Of a DNA stretch of 64,000 nucleotides, positions 2,550 to 34,037 are shown one piece after another (positions within the stretch are counted from its first letter, which is position 1; each line of letters starts with the position of its first letter). The notes beneath the pieces were generated by a model. The model saw only the letters and a program-made list of their open reading frames with translations. It was not told the origin of the DNA and ran no database searches. Location: positions 1-64,000 of the IMG/VR virus record IMGVR_UViG_3300028392_000049. One strand, 5' to 3'. Origin of the DNA: a virus. The position numbers and the translations under genes are program-made.

Positions 2550-3350
2550 CCAAAAATCAAATGATCAGCTGATTATGCCCTTGTCCGCCCTGCGGGCGGG
2601 GGCTATATGTTTGTGTTGAGCTTGTCCCACAGCCACCCACACGCGCTCTTCTTCCTTTTTACAAAAGGAAGGCAAAATAAGAGAGAGATTTGACTTATTC
2701 AGCCGAGTATGCTAGGCAAAATAAATGGCGTTTGTTATTGACTTATGGCACATTTTGTGGTATGGGGCTCGTCAGAGCCATTTGAGAGAGAAATGAGAGA
2801 GAGAGCCTATTCAGGCTGAGAGAGAGAATGCTGGGGTGGGCAGAGAGAGCCTACCTAGATACATAGAGAGAGCATAGAGAGCCCCCAGAGCCTGCCCAGC
2901 CTACTAAGCACCAGCATAATAAGCCTATTAGTCCACATGCTGACACCGATTTGCGCTTTCGGCTACTACATGCTATGTGCCGAGACTGCAACTGGGCGCA
3001 CCAGCAGGTCTGGGGCATGTTCGCCTGATTAGTTATGTGATAACTGGCAGAAAGGGCAGAAATCCCATTATCATCTAGGTATTGACTTGTCAAGTCTGAG
3101 GAAAGGCTATTTCAGACACTTTCAGCATGAGTGGGTGTAATCACTACTGGAAGCAGGTAATCCTCTCTCTGTGGCTCTCTGTGTCTCTCAGGTGGTTGTG
3201 GATAACTTTCCTCTATGTATCTCTCTATGTAATTGGCTTGTTAGTCAATCTGCAAAACCCCAAAATCCTTTCTAGATAAGGGCTTTAGAAGCGTTATCAA
3301 ACCGTTACCTAAAAAGGGGCATTTGGGCTTGTGTGCTGTCAGCGTAGGTC
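2550..3350. other. Long noncoding control region (candidate origin, packaging site or terminal region)
   Basis: No credible ORF; GA-rich left half, CT-rich right half, 12-bp inverted repeat 2857-2868/3211-3222, reverse DnaA box 3197-3205. Confidence 0.4.
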
Positions 3351-12233: not shown

Positions 12234-13730
12234 TTAGTCTTCTATGCCCTGTTGAATGATGCGAGTAACTTGCTCCTCGTCCATTCCACCATTGGGTAAC
12301 TGGTTAAGATTTTGCGCCCTTTCGCCAAAAATTTGGGACAAAACACCGCCACCGTTTTTGGCTTCCACCGTCATCTTGACGTACGATGAAGTGTCTTCCA
12401 AATCCTTCATTACCTTAACCAACTTAAACAGTCTATCGACCTCTTGGCTGGTATTTGGATCGGGGTAGCCGCCGTTCAATTCTTCTGAAAACCTTGCAAA
12501 TGCTATACGTTGTCCCTGCATTTCAATGATGGCAGTAAGTAACGCCGACAACTGTTCTTTGGTCTTAACTTCTACTGGCAAATTAAATGCACACGTATTC
12601 TGGGGCTTAAACGCAGGGCAATTTGAGGCTACAAAACAAGTGTCACACATGCGTAAACTGGTGCTGTTTGACCTAATAAGCGGTACGTCTTTAATAACGT
12701 CAAAACCATTTTCATCTTTCTCAATAATGGTTTTAATCTCTGCGCCAAACCCTGGCAAAATAGCCATCTCACCATGTTCGCGCTCAATAAGTTTCCGCAT
12801 GCCAGTACCCTTGTTATCATGTACGGCAGGGGTGTTTTCCGCGTTAGGCGCACTAACAATATCAGCACTGTTATGATATAACTTGTCTTCTTCTTCGTAG
12901 TCGTGTTCAGGGCTTAAGAATGGGTTATTCACCATGTTAAAACGCTCCTCAAACTGGTCATACGACCATAGGGCTAGTTTAGCCACTTCCACGGGATCGT
13001 CTCCCATAATTTTATCAAAATCCAGACCAGCTTTCTCGTACACCGCTTTGTATCTGGGGCGGGCTTGGTCTTTCATCTTCTTTGGGTATCTAACTAGCTT
13101 GTTACCTGTCCATACAATGGTCTCTCCGCGCATCATTGGAGACAGCCACGACTGGGTGCTGGCTGTTGCTACATGGATTTGACGCAAGTTATCGGGCTTA
13201 GCACAGGCTAGCGCATGGAACGTAGTACCATGCTGTGTACTGAGGGCCCTAGTTTTTGCCGCCAACGATACGTCAGCCTCAATGATTGAGTAGGGGATTG
13301 CTACATCCTTGTACTGCTGGCACATGTCCACAATCTCAGCGTAGGAATGGTCGGCTCTGACAGTTGCCCAAAACTTTTCTTCCTCGGCCCATGCTGCATC
13401 TCGTTGCATACTTAGGGCTGATTTATCTAAGGCTGGATGGTCAATCTCTAAAAAGGATGTAATCCTATCCATGTTATGGGCTAGAAAATCTTCGTATTCA
13501 ATAGCAAACGCCTCAACCTCTTCTAGGCTAAGCTGTGCGCTTTCTGGAATACCTGGGTGCACATAAATGTTCATGTACTCTTGAAAGTAATTGCTTAATA
13601 AGTAACGCTTATTCTTCGGTAGACCACGTTTTGTAAGGCGCCAAAAGGAAACACCAACGTTCTTGATGCCCATGCTCTCCAGAATGACACGATTACTAGG
13701 AACATCTGCCCCTAAGTAAATCAGTTCCAT
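12234..13730 (-). CDS. Hypothetical protein: possible degenerate TGT/DpdA-like barrel plus Cys4 cluster and helical C-terminus
   Basis: FHALA...TASTQSWL...G resembles the HxxG...DSxxW pattern; CDTC-x5-C-x8-C; the fold call is tentative. Confidence 0.45.
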   Translation of the reverse strand: MELIYLGADVPSNRVILESMGIKNVGVSFWRLTKRGLPKNKRYLLSNYFQEYMNIYVHPGIPESAQLSLEEVEAFAIEYEDFLAHNMDRITSFLEIDHPALDKSALSMQRDAAWAEEEKFWATVRADHSYAEIVDMCQQYKDVAIPYSIIEADVSLAAKTRALSTQHGTTFHALACAKPDNLRQIHVATASTQSWLSPMMRGETIVWTGNKLVRYPKKMKDQARPRYKAVYEKAGLDFDKIMGDDPVEVAKLALWSYDQFEERFNMVNNPFLSPEHDYEEEDKLYHNSADIVSAPNAENTPAVHDNKGTGMRKLIEREHGEMAILPGFGAEIKTIIEKDENGFDVIKDVPLIRSNSTSLRMCDTCFVASNCPAFKPQNTCAFNLPVEVKTKEQLSALLTAIIEMQGQRIAFARFSEELNGGYPDPNTSQEVDRLFKLVKVMKDLEDTSSYVKMTVEAKNGGGVLSQIFGERAQNLNQLPNGGMDEEQVTRIIQQGIED

Positions 13731-27879: not shown

Positions 27880-29849
27880 TTAGCTTCACCCCATCGGTTT
27901 ACTGTAGTAATATCTGCAATCAAAGGTACATCTAAAAGTTGGATGCCCTCCATAGCCTCTTTAATAGCTTCCATGGTCTCTTCAACTTTCCCTTCAGGAG
28001 TTAATGTCACAAGTTCATCGTGAACAGTTAGTAGTATACGCGCTTCTTTTGGAATCATAGCATCTGCGCGAATCATTGCCAACTTGATAATGTCAGCGGC
28101 TGAACCTTGAATACGGGTGTTAAATGCCTGACGTTCTGCACTAGACCTAAAGCTTTGATCTTTAGAGTTCAAGTCAGGCAAGAACCGCTTCCGTCCCAGA
28201 ATAGTAGTAACATGTGGAACTGCCTGCTTACGAGCCAACGCCAACAACTTTATTCTATACGAAGATACGGACGAGAACTGTGAGCCAAAACTGTCTAGCA
28301 AGTCACGAGCCTCGGAGACCGTACAACCAATCTGGCTAGCAATCTTAGCTGGCCCTACCCCGTACGCCATAGCAAGTACAAGCACCTTACCAGCCTTACG
28401 GTCTACTCCCATAGTGTTGCCTACAGTTGTGTAGATGTCTCCACCGTCAAGATAGTTCTTCATCATGATGGGGTCTTTAGCCATAGATGCGATGACGCGA
28501 GGTTCAATCTGAGAGTAGTCTGCAACAACCAACTTGTAACCATCGGGCGCGTAGAAGAGGTTTCGGATAGCCTTACCATGCGGCGTGTGAGGGGCGGGGA
28601 CATTTTGAAGGTTAGGGTTGCGACTGCTGAAACGCCCAGTCTCAGCACCATGTTGCACAAAGTCACAATGAATCCGTCCGTTGATAAGAAGGCTTTCTTT
28701 TTGCTCACGCTTTTCTTTACCACCAGTAGTCCTGACAACTTCGCCTCCAAGGTATGGTACTACGTAAGTAGTACTCAGTTTATTAAGGTCAGAGTATTTA
28801 AGTAGAGCCTCTACCAATGGGTCTTTATCTCGGTATAGTTCCAAAGCCTCGGCAGATACAGAGTAATCAGAGAACTGCAAGTCATCAGAGTCTTTCTTCT
28901 GCCCAGCAGTGGTAAGGATCTTTGGCTTAAGCCCACGACCACCTTGGTCCTTGCCTGAGTACAATAAAAACTGCTTCTCCTGGTTGGAGTTAATGTTAAA
29001 GACACGACCAGCAATACGGAAGATGTCTGAACGAGCAACCTCAATATCTTCACGAAGTTGAGCATCAAGAGCGGTTAGCGCCTCTACGTCAATGGGCGCA
29101 CCTGTTAGCTTTATTGTGCACAACACAGCAAGGACGTCCATCTCTAAGTCCATTACCTGGTTGAAGCCACCATCTTCAATCTTTTTTCTAAGAGCTTTCC
29201 ATAGCAGGAATGTGTACTTAGCATCAAGGTAAGCATACTTAGCCACCTCATCAAATGAGTAAACTTCTACTTCCTTGCCTACGCCTTTGACCATCTCGTA
29301 TCCAAACTCACGCTTAAGGCAATCTCCCAAGCCACAACGGTTCTTGTTTCTGTTGTCACTTAGGAATGAAGCAATCATGGTATCAAAGTATGGGCCTACA
29401 GGAACCTGCCCACCGTAGTACTTAGCAACAGATGTCAAGTCAAAGATAAGGTTATGACCAACAGTCAGTACGTCCTTGCTAAACATAAGAGGACGAATTG
29501 TCTCAAATACTTCTGCAGGGTATAGCTGTTTAGGTGGTGCGCCAAAAGTTTTAGTAGCTTTTTTCTTATCGCGTGAGTAATCACTGGGGCGAGCAGTAAG
29601 CCCAGCCTCTACGCGCTTTTCGCCTTGACCAGTTAGCGGGAATCGCTCTTCAATAAAAGCACCATTAGGATGACCCATAGGGATAACATCACAACGGCCG
29701 TGCGTTGCGAAAGTAATCCATAAAACTTCATTAATAGGCGTAAGCCCACGGTTATCTCCTACAGTTTCTACGTCAAATGCAAAAGCATCTTGCGTTAAAT
29801 AAAATTCAACCATCTCATTTAACTGAGACATGCTTGTAATAATGTTCAT
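27876..29849 (-). CDS. polA: Family A DNA polymerase (3'-5' exonuclease plus polymerase, no 5' nuclease)
   Basis: FDVET, HNLIFD, YAYLDA, TGRFSSRNPNLQN, ADYSQIEPR, IQGSAADIIK, VHDEL. Confidence 0.95.
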   Translation of the reverse strand: MNIITSMSQLNEMVEFYLTQDAFAFDVETVGDNRGLTPINEVLWITFATHGRCDVIPMGHPNGAFIEERFPLTGQGEKRVEAGLTARPSDYSRDKKKATKTFGAPPKQLYPAEVFETIRPLMFSKDVLTVGHNLIFDLTSVAKYYGGQVPVGPYFDTMIASFLSDNRNKNRCGLGDCLKREFGYEMVKGVGKEVEVYSFDEVAKYAYLDAKYTFLLWKALRKKIEDGGFNQVMDLEMDVLAVLCTIKLTGAPIDVEALTALDAQLREDIEVARSDIFRIAGRVFNINSNQEKQFLLYSGKDQGGRGLKPKILTTAGQKKDSDDLQFSDYSVSAEALELYRDKDPLVEALLKYSDLNKLSTTYVVPYLGGEVVRTTGGKEKREQKESLLINGRIHCDFVQHGAETGRFSSRNPNLQNVPAPHTPHGKAIRNLFYAPDGYKLVVADYSQIEPRVIASMAKDPIMMKNYLDGGDIYTTVGNTMGVDRKAGKVLVLAMAYGVGPAKIASQIGCTVSEARDLLDSFGSQFSSVSSYRIKLLALARKQAVPHVTTILGRKRFLPDLNSKDQSFRSSAERQAFNTRIQGSAADIIKLAMIRADAMIPKEARILLTVHDELVTLTPEGKVEETMEAIKEAMEGIQLLDVPLIADITTVNRWGEAK

Positions 29850-31099: not shown

Positions 31100-31507
31100 T
31101 TAACTCTTCGACATCACTAACGCCCAGGTTATCTTAGCAGGAAACATCTTGTCAATGTCTTCCTCGGTGATAAGATTTTCCCAGTAGGCAGACATGATTT
31201 CATCTTCGTTAAGCACGGGTACCATTTCAATGCACCGTTCGTGCAGACCTTTGGCTTTGAGGATTTCTTCAGCAACTTCAATATCAAGAGACTTAGATAC
31301 TTTACGCTGCTGCATGACTTCGCGTACGCCGCTAACTTCATCGTTAAGTTCTACTACAAGGTGACCCTTGTCGCTCTCTACGCCAAGATCAGCAACACCC
31401 TCACGGATGTTCTTTTTAATCTCGGACTGGATTGCAGTAAGATCGCTAATACGCTCACTAAGTACTGCATTCTGCCTAACGTAATCAAGGATTTCTGGCA
31501 AGTCCAC
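31100..31507 (-). CDS. Conserved hypothetical phage protein
   Basis: AAGGAG SD and TAAAGT -10. Confidence 0.8.
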   Translation of the reverse strand: MDLPEILDYVRQNAVLSERISDLTAIQSEIKKNIREGVADLGVESDKGHLVVELNDEVSGVREVMQQRKVSKSLDIEVAEEILKAKGLHERCIEMVPVLNEDEIMSAYWENLITEEDIDKMFPAKITWALVMSKS

Positions 31508-31547
31508 GCGGTTACTCCTTTTATGCTAGATGTTACTTTACCACAAA

Positions 31548-31706
31548 TTATTGAGAAGCTCGTGCATTTTTTAAGTATTGTAAAAGGGCATCAATAATGA
31601 TGCTAGTGACGGTGACTCCGTCAATACGGGCCTGTTCTTGAACGGCCTGCCACAATTCGTCATCTACCCGTAGGGTGCGAGTTGGGGTCTTAGGTGCATT
31701 AGGCAT
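31548..31706 (-). CDS. Ribbon-helix-helix DNA-binding protein (52 aa), leaderless, not in the ORF track
   Basis: MPNAPKTPTRTLRVDDELWQAV...; TATAAT-6 nt-ATG. Confidence 0.8.
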   Translation of the reverse strand: MPNAPKTPTRTLRVDDELWQAVQEQARIDGVTVTSIIIDALLQYLKNARASQ

Positions 31707-31748
31707 ACTTATATTATACCTGCCCGTACTGACAAATATAGGGTAAAG

Positions 31749-31820
31749 CTCCCGCTAGTGGATTCGAACCAATAACCCCAGAGTTAACAGCTCTGTGCTC
31801 TGCCGTTGAGCTAAGCGGGA
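31749..31820 (-). tRNA. tRNA-Asn(GTT)
   Basis: Cloverleaf TCCCGCT.../CAGAG-CTGTTAA-CTCTG/TTCGAAT/AGCGGGA-G; no encoded CCA. Confidence 0.9.
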
Positions 31821-31825
31821 TTGAG

Positions 31826-31903
31826 TGGAGTAGCAGAGAATCGAACTCTGGTCCTAGTAATTTCCGCGTGCGGTTTTAATACTAGTCGAAACCTTCCTAC
31901 CCC
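31826..31903 (-). ncRNA. Mini-tmRNA: tRNA-like domain only, no tag reading frame
   Basis: GGGGTAG/CTACTCC-A acceptor with G3.U70, GAAGGTTTCGAC D-loop, CTAGTATT/AATTACTAG helix 2a, GAC-CAGAG-TTCGATT-CTCTG T-arm. Confidence 0.8.
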
Positions 31904-31904
31904 G

Positions 31905-31983
31905 TGCTGGACCTTGGAATCGAACCAAGCGTGCTTTCGCGACAGATTTACAGTCCGTTGCCCCACCTTGGGGCCTGCACAGC
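31905..31983 (-). tRNA. tRNA-Tyr(GTA)
   Basis: ACGGA-CTGTAAA-TCTGT anticodon arm, long variable arm, TTCGATT loop; atypical short D-arm. Confidence 0.8.
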
Positions 31984-31988
31984 TTACG

Positions 31989-32061
31989 AGCCTCAAGCAG
32001 GAATCGAACCCGCGACATCAATATTACAAGTATTGCACTCTGCCAACTGAGTTATTGAGGC
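31989..32061 (-). tRNA. tRNA-Thr(TGT)
   Basis: GCCTCAA/TTGAGGC acceptor, CAATA-CTTGTAA-TATTG anticodon arm. Confidence 0.9.
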
Positions 32062-32068
32062 ACAGCTT

Positions 32069-32539
32069 TTAGCTAACAGCACGTTGTTTAAGTTTAGCAG
32101 ATTCTCTGTATTGATGTTTTCTGGCTTTCATATACTCAGCTTTTTTAGCCTTGCATGGAGCACATGGGCAATTACGTTTACCTGAGTTTCCTCCGCCGTG
32201 CTCTACTGATTCAAGATCCCCTTCTGCGTAACTTTTTTTAATGTGGCACTCTTTACAGAGCACTTGACATTTAGCAAGCTCTGCTTGAACTTTAGCTTCA
32301 CTGCCACCCCCAATAATTTTTCCTATTTCATAGGTTTTATTATTGGCATCAATGTGATCTAATTCAAGACTTTCAATCGATCCACAATGAGCACACTGAC
32401 TACCCAAAGCTTTAATGGCTGCGTCTCTACGTTTTTTATAGCGAAGCCTTTGGTATTCCTTCATATAATTGTTATAACAAGTACGACATTTACCCGAATT
32501 GATTGCGGGCTCTGTTGTGCAGAGGGAGCATATTTTCAT
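32069..32539 (-). CDS. HNH endonuclease, leaderless, directly upstream of the tRNA cluster
   Basis: CAHCG...LELDHID...CQVLCKECH; TGC-TAAGGT-6 nt-ATG. Confidence 0.88.
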   Translation of the reverse strand: MKICSLCTTEPAINSGKCRTCYNNYMKEYQRLRYKKRRDAAIKALGSQCAHCGSIESLELDHIDANNKTYEIGKIIGGGSEAKVQAELAKCQVLCKECHIKKSYAEGDLESVEHGGGNSGKRNCPCAPCKAKKAEYMKARKHQYRESAKLKQRAVS

Positions 32540-32557
32540 GCCCACACCTTAGCATAA

Positions 32558-32740
32558 CTATTCCTGGTCGCGCAAACCGATGGTAATGAGCCACATGACT
32601 AGTGTAAATAGGATAGCTGCACCTACTACGGTTTTAGCACTACCATCAAGAACACACCAAGCAATGAACATACCTAATAGTGTCCATAGCTGATTTAAGG
32701 TTTCAATAAAGGCATTAGCAAACCATTTAAGAAGACTCAT
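32558..32740 (-). CDS. Small membrane protein with two hydrophobic segments
   Basis: Hydrophobicity; overlaps the upstream gene. Confidence 0.7.
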   Translation of the reverse strand: MSLLKWFANAFIETLNQLWTLLGMFIAWCVLDGSAKTVVGAAILFTLVMWLITIGLRDQE

Positions 32741-34037
32741 GGTTTACCCCTCTAACGTTAGATGTTACTGATGATGTGGTTGGAGCCCTGCGAACCAAAG
32801 TAACCGCCGAAGTTCCAGCAATAATCTGAGTAACAACAACAGATGGAATGATAGCCCGCTGTGATTGCTTACGCTGAGCAGGTGTCATATCTGCACCGAT
32901 ATTCATGATGGCTGTAGCGAATTGTCCTGGCCTAGAAAAAAGAGCGTTAATTAAGTCCGAAGGGCTATTAAATAATTGAAGTGCTTGGGCCACTGTGACT
33001 GTAAGCTCAACTCCATTAGACAAAACCATAACTGCATCTACGTTGTTTAAGTTAGGATCTGAGGCTTGGCATACATCTGTGGCATTATCAAGATCTTCAG
33101 TATGCCCATCCCAGAATAAGTTATATCGCTGAGTTGCCGTCCAGCTAACTTCAGAATTATCTATAGGGCTATTACCTGTACAAGGAACTTGTCTGGTCTC
33201 CACTGTAGGTGCGGGTATAGGGAATGTTGGAATAGCAGCAATACATGCAGCAGCTACCGTGTCAATGTCAACCGTATGGTTATCCCAGTATAAGTAGTAA
33301 TGCTGATCAGCCGTACCATCTACTTGAGCCTGAGTGTACGGATTAGTCCAAGTGCATTGAACAGTACGAGTCTGAATGGTTGGGGCTGGTTCTGGGGAAC
33401 ACGTCTGATCTACGGGAATTACTGAGTTGTCCCAGCAAGTGTGGGTCTCTACAGGGCGGCCACCATTGACAGCAAACGTGCTGCTAATGGGAACAATAGC
33501 TTGACCTGATTGGAAACGAATACCACGACGTAGTGTGTTTGGAAGCGGTCCTGAAGAAGTTACTTCTCCATCCCATCCGCCATTAGCATAGCGGGTTACA
33601 TGAAGTTCAATGTAAGTTAAAGTACCCGAGTCACTTGGGTATGGTCGAACAGCCCACTGAACGCAGAGCGTATTGGCTGTGGTTCCGTAACGTAAGTAAG
33701 CACCAGTACCCCAAGTTACCCAGTCATTACCTGCAACAGAAATGCTAGGAGTCTGCGGGTAATCCCAGTAAGTACCATCAGAGATCCCAAATGACAATAG
33801 ACCATTAATGCTGGCGTAAACATTGGTGTAGCTAGTATTGCCAAGATTAAGGTTAAATGGTAGATGCATCTGAAAAGATGAATCGTCTCCTGCTGGGAAT
33901 GTGGTGCTATCACATACAAAAGTAGAGGTGTTTGCTTGAGCAGGTGTTACTAATGGTGCAAACCCAATTAAAGCAAAAACGCTTAGGGAAGCAAAAATTT
34001 TAAAAAGTTTCAATGCTAATTCTCTTCCTAGACTCAA
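32727..34037 (-). CDS. Secreted/membrane-anchored protein (NIDO-like N-domain, two Cys-linked repeats)
   Basis: Signal peptide ending AQA; DD...LPF...G..Y..VY.S.NG..SFG; repeated TRxVxCT...Q.Y.L.WD.HT.D. Confidence 0.65.
   Translation of the reverse strand: MSLGRELALKLFKIFASLSVFALIGFAPLVTPAQANTSTFVCDSTTFPAGDDSSFQMHLPFNLNLGNTSYTNVYASINGLLSFGISDGTYWDYPQTPSISVAGNDWVTWGTGAYLRYGTTANTLCVQWAVRPYPSDSGTLTYIELHVTRYANGGWDGEVTSSGPLPNTLRRGIRFQSGQAIVPISSTFAVNGGRPVETHTCWDNSVIPVDQTCSPEPAPTIQTRTVQCTWTNPYTQAQVDGTADQHYYLYWDNHTVDIDTVAAACIAAIPTFPIPAPTVETRQVPCTGNSPIDNSEVSWTATQRYNLFWDGHTEDLDNATDVCQASDPNLNNVDAVMVLSNGVELTVTVAQALQLFNSPSDLINALFSRPGQFATAIMNIGADMTPAQRKQSQRAIIPSVVVTQIIAGTSAVTLVRRAPTTSSVTSNVRGVNHESS

Follow-up and report, generated by a model that had tools for sequence, protein, structure and literature searches.

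What kind of RNA is encoded by the 78-nt gene that lies inside the tRNA cluster of the virus record IMGVR_UViG_3300028392_000049 (IMG/VR), and what could a phage do with it? The gene occupies positions 31826 to 31903, minus strand, of the window, by which we mean the whole 64,000-nt stretch that was analyzed (positions 1 to 64,000 of the record), itself part of a complete virus record of 88,679 bp with direct terminal repeats. A first-pass annotation had described it, from the letters alone, as a mini-tmRNA, that is, a transfer-messenger RNA (tmRNA, the product of ssrA) made up of the tRNA-like domain (TLD) only, without a tag message and in the standard, non-permuted order. Bacteria rescue ribosomes mainly by trans-translation, a pathway that also determines what becomes of truncated proteins. 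From its sequence and relatives, the element is very probably such a tag-less, TLD-only, non-permuted tmRNA and a member of a family of RNAs of this kind.

A probable tmRNA without its message

Read on the minus strand from 31903 to 31826, the gene begins with a 7-bp acceptor stem, GGGGTAG (31897 to 31903) facing CTACTCC, in which G3 (31901) is opposed by U70 (31829). The 3' strand of the stem and the discriminator A73 (31826) together take up 31826 to 31833, both strands being assigned from the sequence and from the family counts given below; CCA is not encoded, and CTC comes after the discriminator. The D-loop, GAAGGTTTCGA (31886 to 31896), has no stem, aligns in Rfam with the tmRNA consensus GGaUUCGAC, and ends in GGTTTCGAC; in the same alignment its last GA and the next C make up the conserved GAC. 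Helix 2a, CTAGTATT/AATTACTAG, spans eight positions with one T.T mismatch, the 5' strand CTAGTATT lying at 31878 to 31885 and the 3' strand ATTACTAG at 31854 to 31861 (both supported by the anchored pair counts and alignment A3 described below, the latter also by RNAalifold). Between the two strands are an A-rich internal loop, AAAA (31874 to 31877), with the consensus AAA(A/G) in alignments A1, A2, and A5, and an apical hairpin, CCG-CACG-CGG (31864 to 31873), which is predicted by RNAalifold and is 94% paired in A3. The linker GAC (31851 to 31853), which with the preceding G forms the conserved GGAC of the Rfam alignment, leads into the T-arm CAGAG-TTCGATT-CTCTG (31834 to 31850), assigned from the sequence and A3. 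Just 30 nt, nearly all of them base paired, lie between GAC and GGAC.

A strict motif pattern matched once in the window and in 0 of 100 shuffles. The single-sequence minimum free energy fold of the element (−24.1 kcal/mol, z of −2.34) was equaled by 8 of 200 shuffles and did not form the T-arm; single-sequence thermodynamics is therefore uninformative here, and we relied on comparative structure.

The element matches the Rfam tmRNA model RF00023 from model position 1 to 374 with 52.1 bits (gathering cut-off, 47; E, 1.2e-19), and 10 nt stand for the 302 model positions that hold the tag message and the pseudoknots. The permuted-tmRNA model RF04321 gives 20.3 bits against a cut-off of 47. Among the features of a tmRNA TLD, we find the alanine acceptor (G1-C72, G2-C71, G3.U70, and A73), the D-loop GG..UUCGAC without a D-stem, a helix 2a closed by GAC and GGAC, and a T-loop of the TTCGA type. 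None of the pseudoknots PK1 to PK4 is present in the RF00023 alignment of the element, nor does the element hold an mRNA-like domain with resume codon, tag frame, and stop. ARAGORN did not call the mini-tmRNA and reported only tRNA-Thr, tRNA-Tyr, and tRNA-Asn, and a search of the whole 88,679-bp genome with the tRNA model RF00005 alone returned only these three neighbors at an E of ≤0.001, leaving the mini-tmRNA unmatched. A cloverleaf with a D-stem and a 7-nt anticodon loop is not present, the consensus fold consisting of an 8-bp arm that an internal loop separates from a 3-bp hairpin with a loop of 4 nt. The end-to-end match to RF00023, the low score of the permuted model, and the lack of a call by ARAGORN or RF00005 point together to a tmRNA TLD in standard order, without message, pseudoknots, or anticodon arm. 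The first-pass annotation had read the acceptor with G3.U70 and A73, the stemless D-loop, the GAC linker, and the T-arm correctly from the sequence, and it had forecast an Rfam tmRNA match lacking the middle and no anticodon arm, which is what we obtained; its identification of a tag-less, non-permuted form is borne out by the RF00023 match, by the covariation in A3, by RNAalifold, and by the test for a tag frame that follows.

A hidden ultra-short tag was considered and rejected. The window sequence does hold a frame that starts in the apical hairpin, GCA-CGC-GGA-AAT-TAC-TAG (ARGNY followed by a stop, five codons plus the stop codon), but the frame is not conserved: 82 of 133 sequences have no GCN at the place examined, and among the 51 family members with GCN at the position where the frame of the window starts, on which the test was made, only 11 reach a stop codon in frame before GGAC is complete.

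A large viral family that keeps the alanine acceptor

Viral contigs were scanned with two patterns. The first, GGGG...GGNTTCGAC...GGAC-T-arm...CTCCA within 62 to 82 nt, matched at least 119 viral contigs, and acceptor pairs 5 to 7 were complementary in all 120 listed matches (the 119 contigs and the window copy) although the pattern had left those pairs free. The second pattern, in which the whole acceptor was left free, matched at least 120 viral contigs, with 71 new ones among the matches listed. Fifty of these 71 had a T-stem of at least four pairs and a 7-bp acceptor; the other 21 comprised spurious matches, tRNA-like sequences of other kinds, and a few copies that were damaged or cut. Both G3.U70 and A73 were kept in every one of the 50 homologues listed from the acceptor-free pattern (50/50), in which pair 4:69 varied among G-C, C-G, A-U, and U-A. 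It had been predicted at the outset that homologues would keep G3.U70 and show a covarying helix 2a, and they do both.

Taken together, the two viral scans yield at least 169 validated viral loci or contigs, with at least 132 distinct sequences of the same architecture and a G+C fraction that ranges from 0.45 to 0.75. G1-C72, G2-C71, and G3.U70 are invariant in the family, and acceptor positions 4 to 7 covary; the D-loop and GGAC motifs were required by the search patterns, so their conservation cannot be judged from these sets. The length from GAC to GGAC is 28 to 31 nt in 104 of 133 sequences, and a minority has a short form of 62 to 69 nt with a plain hairpin. In one contig, IMGVR_UViG_3300017527_000281, there are two mini-tmRNA copies ∼1.3 kb apart (L169:5-81 and L169:1317-1392), which score 43.7 and 54.2 bits with the covariance model R1 described below.

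The acceptor-free core pattern gave at least 120 matches in bacterial genomes, of which 6 among the matches listed have the mini architecture; the 114 others listed failed the test for it, and 78 of those were traced as full-length tmRNA genes. Six mini forms against 78 full-length tmRNA genes among the listed bacterial matches suggest that the small form is chiefly viral. The six lie on contigs of bacterial genomes or metagenome-assembled genomes, for example, Butyrivibrio and metagenome-assembled Bacillota (L206, L258, L279, L292, L303, and L306), and CCA is encoded in four of them. We also considered whether the small form arose when a full tmRNA lost the stretch between direct GCAYG repeats of its helix 2b, and we rejected this origin because the support is too weak: in the 78 full-length bacterial tmRNAs, GCAYG occurs in the 5' part of 19, in the 3' part of 21, and in both parts of 10.

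Evidence for selection on the structure

Alignment A1 was made with MAFFT from 133 sequences, and because its ragged 5' ends were misaligned, A1 was left out of the pair counts. A2 is an ungapped MAFFT alignment of 16 same-length members, and from these 16, without the element of Mycobacterium phage DS6A, we built the covariance model R1, which scores the window element at 95.4 bits. A search with R1 gave 101 matches in 100 sources, which constitute alignment A3.

In A3, 96.9% of the cells are standard pairs, compared to 65.8 ± 0.7% in shuffled alignments and 39 to 50% with slid partners. Changes on both sides are seen in 17 of the 23 pairs, with a covariation score of 0.727 versus 0.146; helix 2a has such changes in seven of its eight pairs, and the T-stem, 100% paired, in four of five. 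A3 was fitted to the structure of R1 and hence leans toward that structure, and two alignment-independent checks agree with it. When pairs were counted without any alignment, by anchoring each of the 133 sequences on GAC and GGAC, the first six pairs of helix 2a after the conserved C-G were formed in 82 to 99% and included all four Watson-Crick types, whereas a register shifted by one gave 29 to 49% pairing. RNAalifold on A2 returned exactly the proposed structure, with 15 of 23 pairs kept through changes on both sides. The nearest relative, L089, differs from the window element at three bases, two of which face each other in helix 2a and convert the T.T mismatch to G-C; the Tyr-mini-Asn gene order is common to both. 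These comparative data show the structure of the mini-tmRNA to be under purifying selection.

The tRNA cluster and the phage genome

The cluster is read on the minus strand and starts with tRNA-Thr(tgt) at 31988 to 32061, followed by tRNA-Tyr(gta) at 31904 to 31983, which lies 0 to 1 nt upstream of the mini-tmRNA; tRNA-Asn(gtt), at 31748 to 31820, lies 5 nt downstream. All three tRNAs are found by both ARAGORN and Rfam. The end of tRNA-Tyr is placed at 31905 by Rfam, leaving a 1-nt spacer, and at 31904 by ARAGORN, leaving none, while tRNA-Asn starts at 31820; the spacing given by the first-pass annotation (1 nt after tRNA-Tyr and 5 nt before tRNA-Asn) agrees with the Rfam coordinates. These three tRNAs and the mini-tmRNA are all such genes of the phage genome, and R1 finds a single mini-tmRNA copy in its 88.7 kb.

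The genome encodes a tail sheath, baseplate proteins, and tail fibers, as well as a family A DNA polymerase (PolA), RecA, SNF2 and DnaB helicases, and a ribonucleotide reductase. The closest relatives of PolA are those of Streptomyces phages LuckySocke, Alone3, GiJojo, pSt2308, and BRock, with ∼39% identity over 98% of the length. Neither SmpB nor a tyrosine integrase was found in the complete 88,679-bp genome.

An independent Logan contig of 293 nt (X1), assembled from a freshwater metagenome run, covers 31725 to 32017 with no differences and no joints. The run that gave X1 contains 69% of the sampled words; in two other runs, X2 and X3, the shares were small and the coverage was limited to short tRNA-like pieces, and no RNA run is listed among those with window words. 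X1 speaks weakly against an assembly deletion, and it may be the source sample of the window; given both the Logan contig and the family, a deletion of this sort is very unlikely.

Directly upstream of the tRNA cluster is an open reading frame of 158 aa (32069 to 32545, minus strand) with the Cys/His-rich motifs DHIDANNK and CKECHIKK, which are reminiscent of HNH endonucleases; it has no Pfam match at an E of ≤0.001 and only two distant relatives in viral contigs. Elsewhere in the window, a 498-aa protein (12234 to 13730, minus strand) matches the PHROG queuine tRNA-ribosyltransferase (phrog_887; E, 3.1e-43) and may belong to a deazaguanine DNA-modification pathway. A 52-nt element with an acceptor stem and a T-arm-like part, with the loop TTCAACT, lies at 2071 to 2122 on the plus strand in an intergenic RNA-rich stretch; it is without G3.U70 and is unrelated to the mini-tmRNA.

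Surroundings of the relatives

We scanned the context of 60 of the 169 listed loci with ARAGORN. At least one tRNA gene was present in 18 of the 60; in 14, a tRNA on the same strand lay no more than 150 nt from the mini-tmRNA, and in the fetched flanks of the other 42 ARAGORN found no tRNA. None of the mini genes in these 60 loci was called as such. In one locus, ARAGORN called a tmRNA of 343 nt with a 30-residue tag (L007:2976-3318), which shares its 3' end with a complete 82-nt mini-tmRNA (3234 to 3315); the call may represent a real long form with a second 5' half or a false extension.

Among 2,233 open reading frames within 3 kb of 133 loci, no conserved partner protein was detected at the level of blastp, the largest neighbor cluster being present at 15 of the 133 loci. 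The top clusters are ordinary phage genes, namely, prohead protease, portal, terminase, capsid, SNF2 helicase, and endonuclease VII. The lack of a conserved neighbor protein fits an RNA that works with host factors.

Proposed function and rival explanations

G3.U70 and A73 direct charging by alanyl-tRNA synthetase (AlaRS), the surface formed by the D-loop, helix 2a, and T-arm of tmRNA binds SmpB, and a charged acceptor with its T-arm binds EF-Tu. The observed sequence, its membership of the family, the selection on its structure and alanine identity elements, and the absence of a tag message are the ground for our proposal, to which we give a probability of roughly 0.55: the gene would be a functional TLD-only tmRNA gene of the DS6A type, the product of which is processed, charged with alanine, and able to occupy host SmpB in competition with host tmRNA. 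The mini-tmRNA and the three phage tRNAs would probably be transcribed into a single precursor, from which host tRNA-processing enzymes would cut the mini-tmRNA at the spacers of 0 to 1 and 5 nt, after which the host would add CCA. Host AlaRS would then charge it with alanine, a step that we propose given that both G3.U70 and A73 are kept without exception. With its D-loop, helix 2a, and T-arm, the RNA would present the same SmpB-binding surface as full tmRNA, and since the phage has no SmpB of its own, it is host SmpB (and EF-Tu) that the charged RNA would tie up, with less ssrA tagging and less normal trans-translation during infection as the predicted result. If this is true, a small phage RNA that blocks or short-cuts trans-translation would be a compact tool of host takeover and also a naturally occurring inhibitor of a pathway under study as a target for antibiotics.

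Several points weigh against this proposal. Processing, CCA addition, alanylation, SmpB binding, and the effect on the host are all steps that we infer. An actinobacterial host is likewise inferred, only from the similarity of PolA and of the RNA to those of Streptomyces and Mycobacterium phages. A scan of 31300 to 32800 for promoters and terminators found four promoter-like sites, with 2.7 ± 1.6 expected, and one terminator-like site, with 1.1 expected, and so nothing above chance. Lastly, Hudson, Lau, and Williams (2014; PMC4131195) cite Mao et al. (2009) for a similar engineered molecule that strongly inhibits tmRNA in Escherichia coli, perhaps through SmpB titration, and does so whether or not it can be charged. 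This inhibition result reaches us second-hand, through PMC4131195. An engineered molecule that inhibits while uncharged implies that a pure sponge needs no G3.U70, yet the pair is strictly conserved (50/50), which hints at a function beyond titration.

Such a function could be rescue without a tag. Alanine-charged mini-tmRNA, as a partner of SmpB and EF-Tu, would enter stalled ribosomes and take over the nascent chain, which for want of a message would be released untagged, either through drop-off and the action of peptidyl-tRNA hydrolase or through a factor of the Arf type; ribosomes would be freed, and phage proteins would escape ssrA-directed proteolysis. The strict conservation of G1-C72, G2-C71, G3.U70, and A73 (50/50 where the pattern did not force them) and the fully intact stack of acceptor and T-arm in A3 argue that charging matters, though a sponge would not need it, judging from PMC4131195. 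The narrow arm length (28 to 31 nt in 104 of 133 sequences) suggests a steric constraint, for example, fit to the ribosome, and tag-less tmRNAs are kept together with SmpB in jakobid mitochondria (PMC11915505). No release route for a peptidyl-mini-tmRNA is known, however, and no hydrolase or release-factor gene is conserved beside the mini-tmRNA in the 133 loci, so that we regard rescue of this kind as a possible but doubtful alternative. A generalization to the whole class would be just as tentative: mini-tmRNAs might form a widespread class of phage RNAs, spanning hundreds of lineages, that receive alanine, enter stalled ribosomes, and end translation without a degradation tag or with the addition of only alanine. 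Phage proteins and ribosomes may then be shielded when mRNA-cleaving defenses of the host or phage-induced mRNA decay create non-stop complexes, and the alanine identity set, the fixed arm length, the A-rich loop, and the apical hairpin may be functional parts of a distinct pathway.

A role in countering tRNA-directed defenses has often been suggested for tRNA-like RNAs of phages, and the mini-tmRNA could be a decoy or ligand, outside trans-translation, for another host factor that reads the shape of acceptor and T-arm, such as a tRNA-targeting defense nuclease, an acetyltransferase toxin, or AlaRS. The apical hairpin and A-rich loop are indeed conserved beyond the known needs of the SmpB contacts in solved SmpB-TLD structures, but the conserved positions are exactly those of a tmRNA TLD (the D-loop GG..UUCGAC and a helix 2a that GAC and GGAC close) and are not features of tRNA, which makes a decoy unlikely. 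That the element is what decay has left of a full-length phage tmRNA gene that suffered an internal deletion, or an artifact of the assembly, in either case without function, is highly improbable given the covariation and narrow lengths across at least 132 distinct sequences with G+C of 0.45 to 0.75, the double change in L089 that repairs a mismatch of helix 2a, the same 78-nt form in three cultured Streptomyces phages, and the Logan contig that bridges the element. Its position in a tRNA cluster could instead suggest an unusual tRNA with a long arm or an intron, or a fragment of host ssrA carried as an attachment site, and the 3' end of ssrA is in fact found in many integrating elements (PMC10865867 and PMC9004378). 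An odd tRNA would be expected neither to escape ARAGORN and RF00005 (E of ≤0.001) nor to lack a 7-nt anticodon loop, and a fragment of an attachment site is at odds with 5' and 3' TLD halves that are both present and paired and with a complete, directly terminally repeated genome that has no tyrosine integrase; there is hardly any room left for either.

Relation to known tag-less tmRNAs

The kind of molecule described here is already in print. PMC4131195 lists Mycobacterium phage DS6A among tmRNAs as "TLD only", and the idea of SmpB titration is stated likewise for the DS6A form in Nawrocki, Petrov, and Williams (2025; PMC11915505). The suggestion of the first-pass annotation that phages would here control ribosome rescue in a new way is thus not supported, as both the TLD-only form of DS6A and the titration idea are found in PMC4131195. 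To a kind already published, the window adds one member, and the analysis adds evidence that the family is large, strongly selected, missed by annotation, and present in cultured Streptomyces phages. The database of PMC11915505 holds 97,179 unique tmRNAs, of which 79 are from bacteriophages, 9 are "Standard, no CDS" (no coding sequence), and 72 are "Permuted, no CDS". One phage example in 2014 and nine standard sequences without a coding sequence in 2025 stand against the at least 132 distinct viral sequences found here. Beyond these two papers, a literature search that left most subscription journals outside found none on the breadth of the TLD-only phage tmRNA family or with a test of a natural phage copy.

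R1 locates the DS6A element at 28478 to 28557 of JN698994.1 (60.3 bits; E, 4.6e-14; model positions 1 to 78), unannotated, between gp33 and gp34. It resembles the window element in the order of its parts: an acceptor with G3.U70 and A73 is followed by a D-loop without a stem, helix 2a, an A-rich loop, the apical hairpin CCGCACGCGG, and a T-arm. Both are phage-borne, ∼80 nt long, and without a tag message, and the apex GAAAACCGCACGCGG is common to the two. Standard order, a length of ∼65 to 85 nt, and a phage genome mark the DS6A type, and the 78-nt window element agrees with it in all three. Where the window element reads TTTCGAC and GGAC, the DS6A element reads GGTCGAC and GGCAC, and it has a longer D-loop; it falls below the Rfam cut-off (43.2 versus 47 bits), which the window element exceeds, and it stands alone between two protein genes of a phage with a Mycobacterium host, whereas the window element sits in a tRNA cluster.

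All three cultured Streptomyces phages tested gave R1 matches, each a 78-nt copy: LuckySocke (OR725497.1, 17977 to 18054; R1, 98.9 bits; Rfam tmRNA, 57.1 bits), pSt2308 (PV588686.1, 33356 to 33433; 89.4 and 61.0 bits), and BRock (KX925554.1, 97143 to 97220, minus strand; 87.1 and 64.5 bits). They share with the window element the length, the architecture, the location inside tRNA arrays, and the apical CCGCACGCGG but follow tRNA-Val(tac) where the window copy follows tRNA-Tyr, and in both the acceptor and helix 2a they have other sequences, with compensating changes. All three exceed the Rfam tmRNA threshold. None of these copies is annotated in its GenBank record, and we know of no paper on them. 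The class is common and almost never annotated, being missed by ARAGORN and by the GenBank records of BRock, LuckySocke, pSt2308, and DS6A. Since the same 78-nt gene occurs in cultured Streptomyces phages with tractable hosts, its function is directly testable. Weaker second matches, tmRNA-like or to R1, of 26 to 30 bits, below the threshold, lie at 12707 to 12782 of OR725497.1 (LuckySocke) and 28249 to 28324 of PV588686.1 (pSt2308); these could represent tRNA-Ala or some further RNA that resembles a TLD.

The tag-less tmRNA genes of jakobid mitochondria are permuted and two-piece. According to PMC11915505, they persist alongside SmpB, and genes of ∼65 bp without a coding sequence are present in plastids of Mallomonadaceae. 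Like the window element, these organellar forms are tag-less tRNA-like molecules that persist under selection, but they are organelle genes, whereas the window gene is a phage gene in standard order. With bacterial ssrA (RF00023), the window element has the whole TLD in common, including the alanine acceptor, D-loop, GAC/GGAC helix 2a, and T-arm, and it differs in having no resume codon, tag frame, or pseudoknots and 30 nt in place of ∼300 nt. The TLD-only molecule of Mao et al. is of the same kind in its architecture, as reported in PMC4131195 and PMC11915505, but that molecule is a laboratory construct whose reported inhibitory effect is independent of chargeability, whereas the natural family strictly keeps its alanine identity elements.

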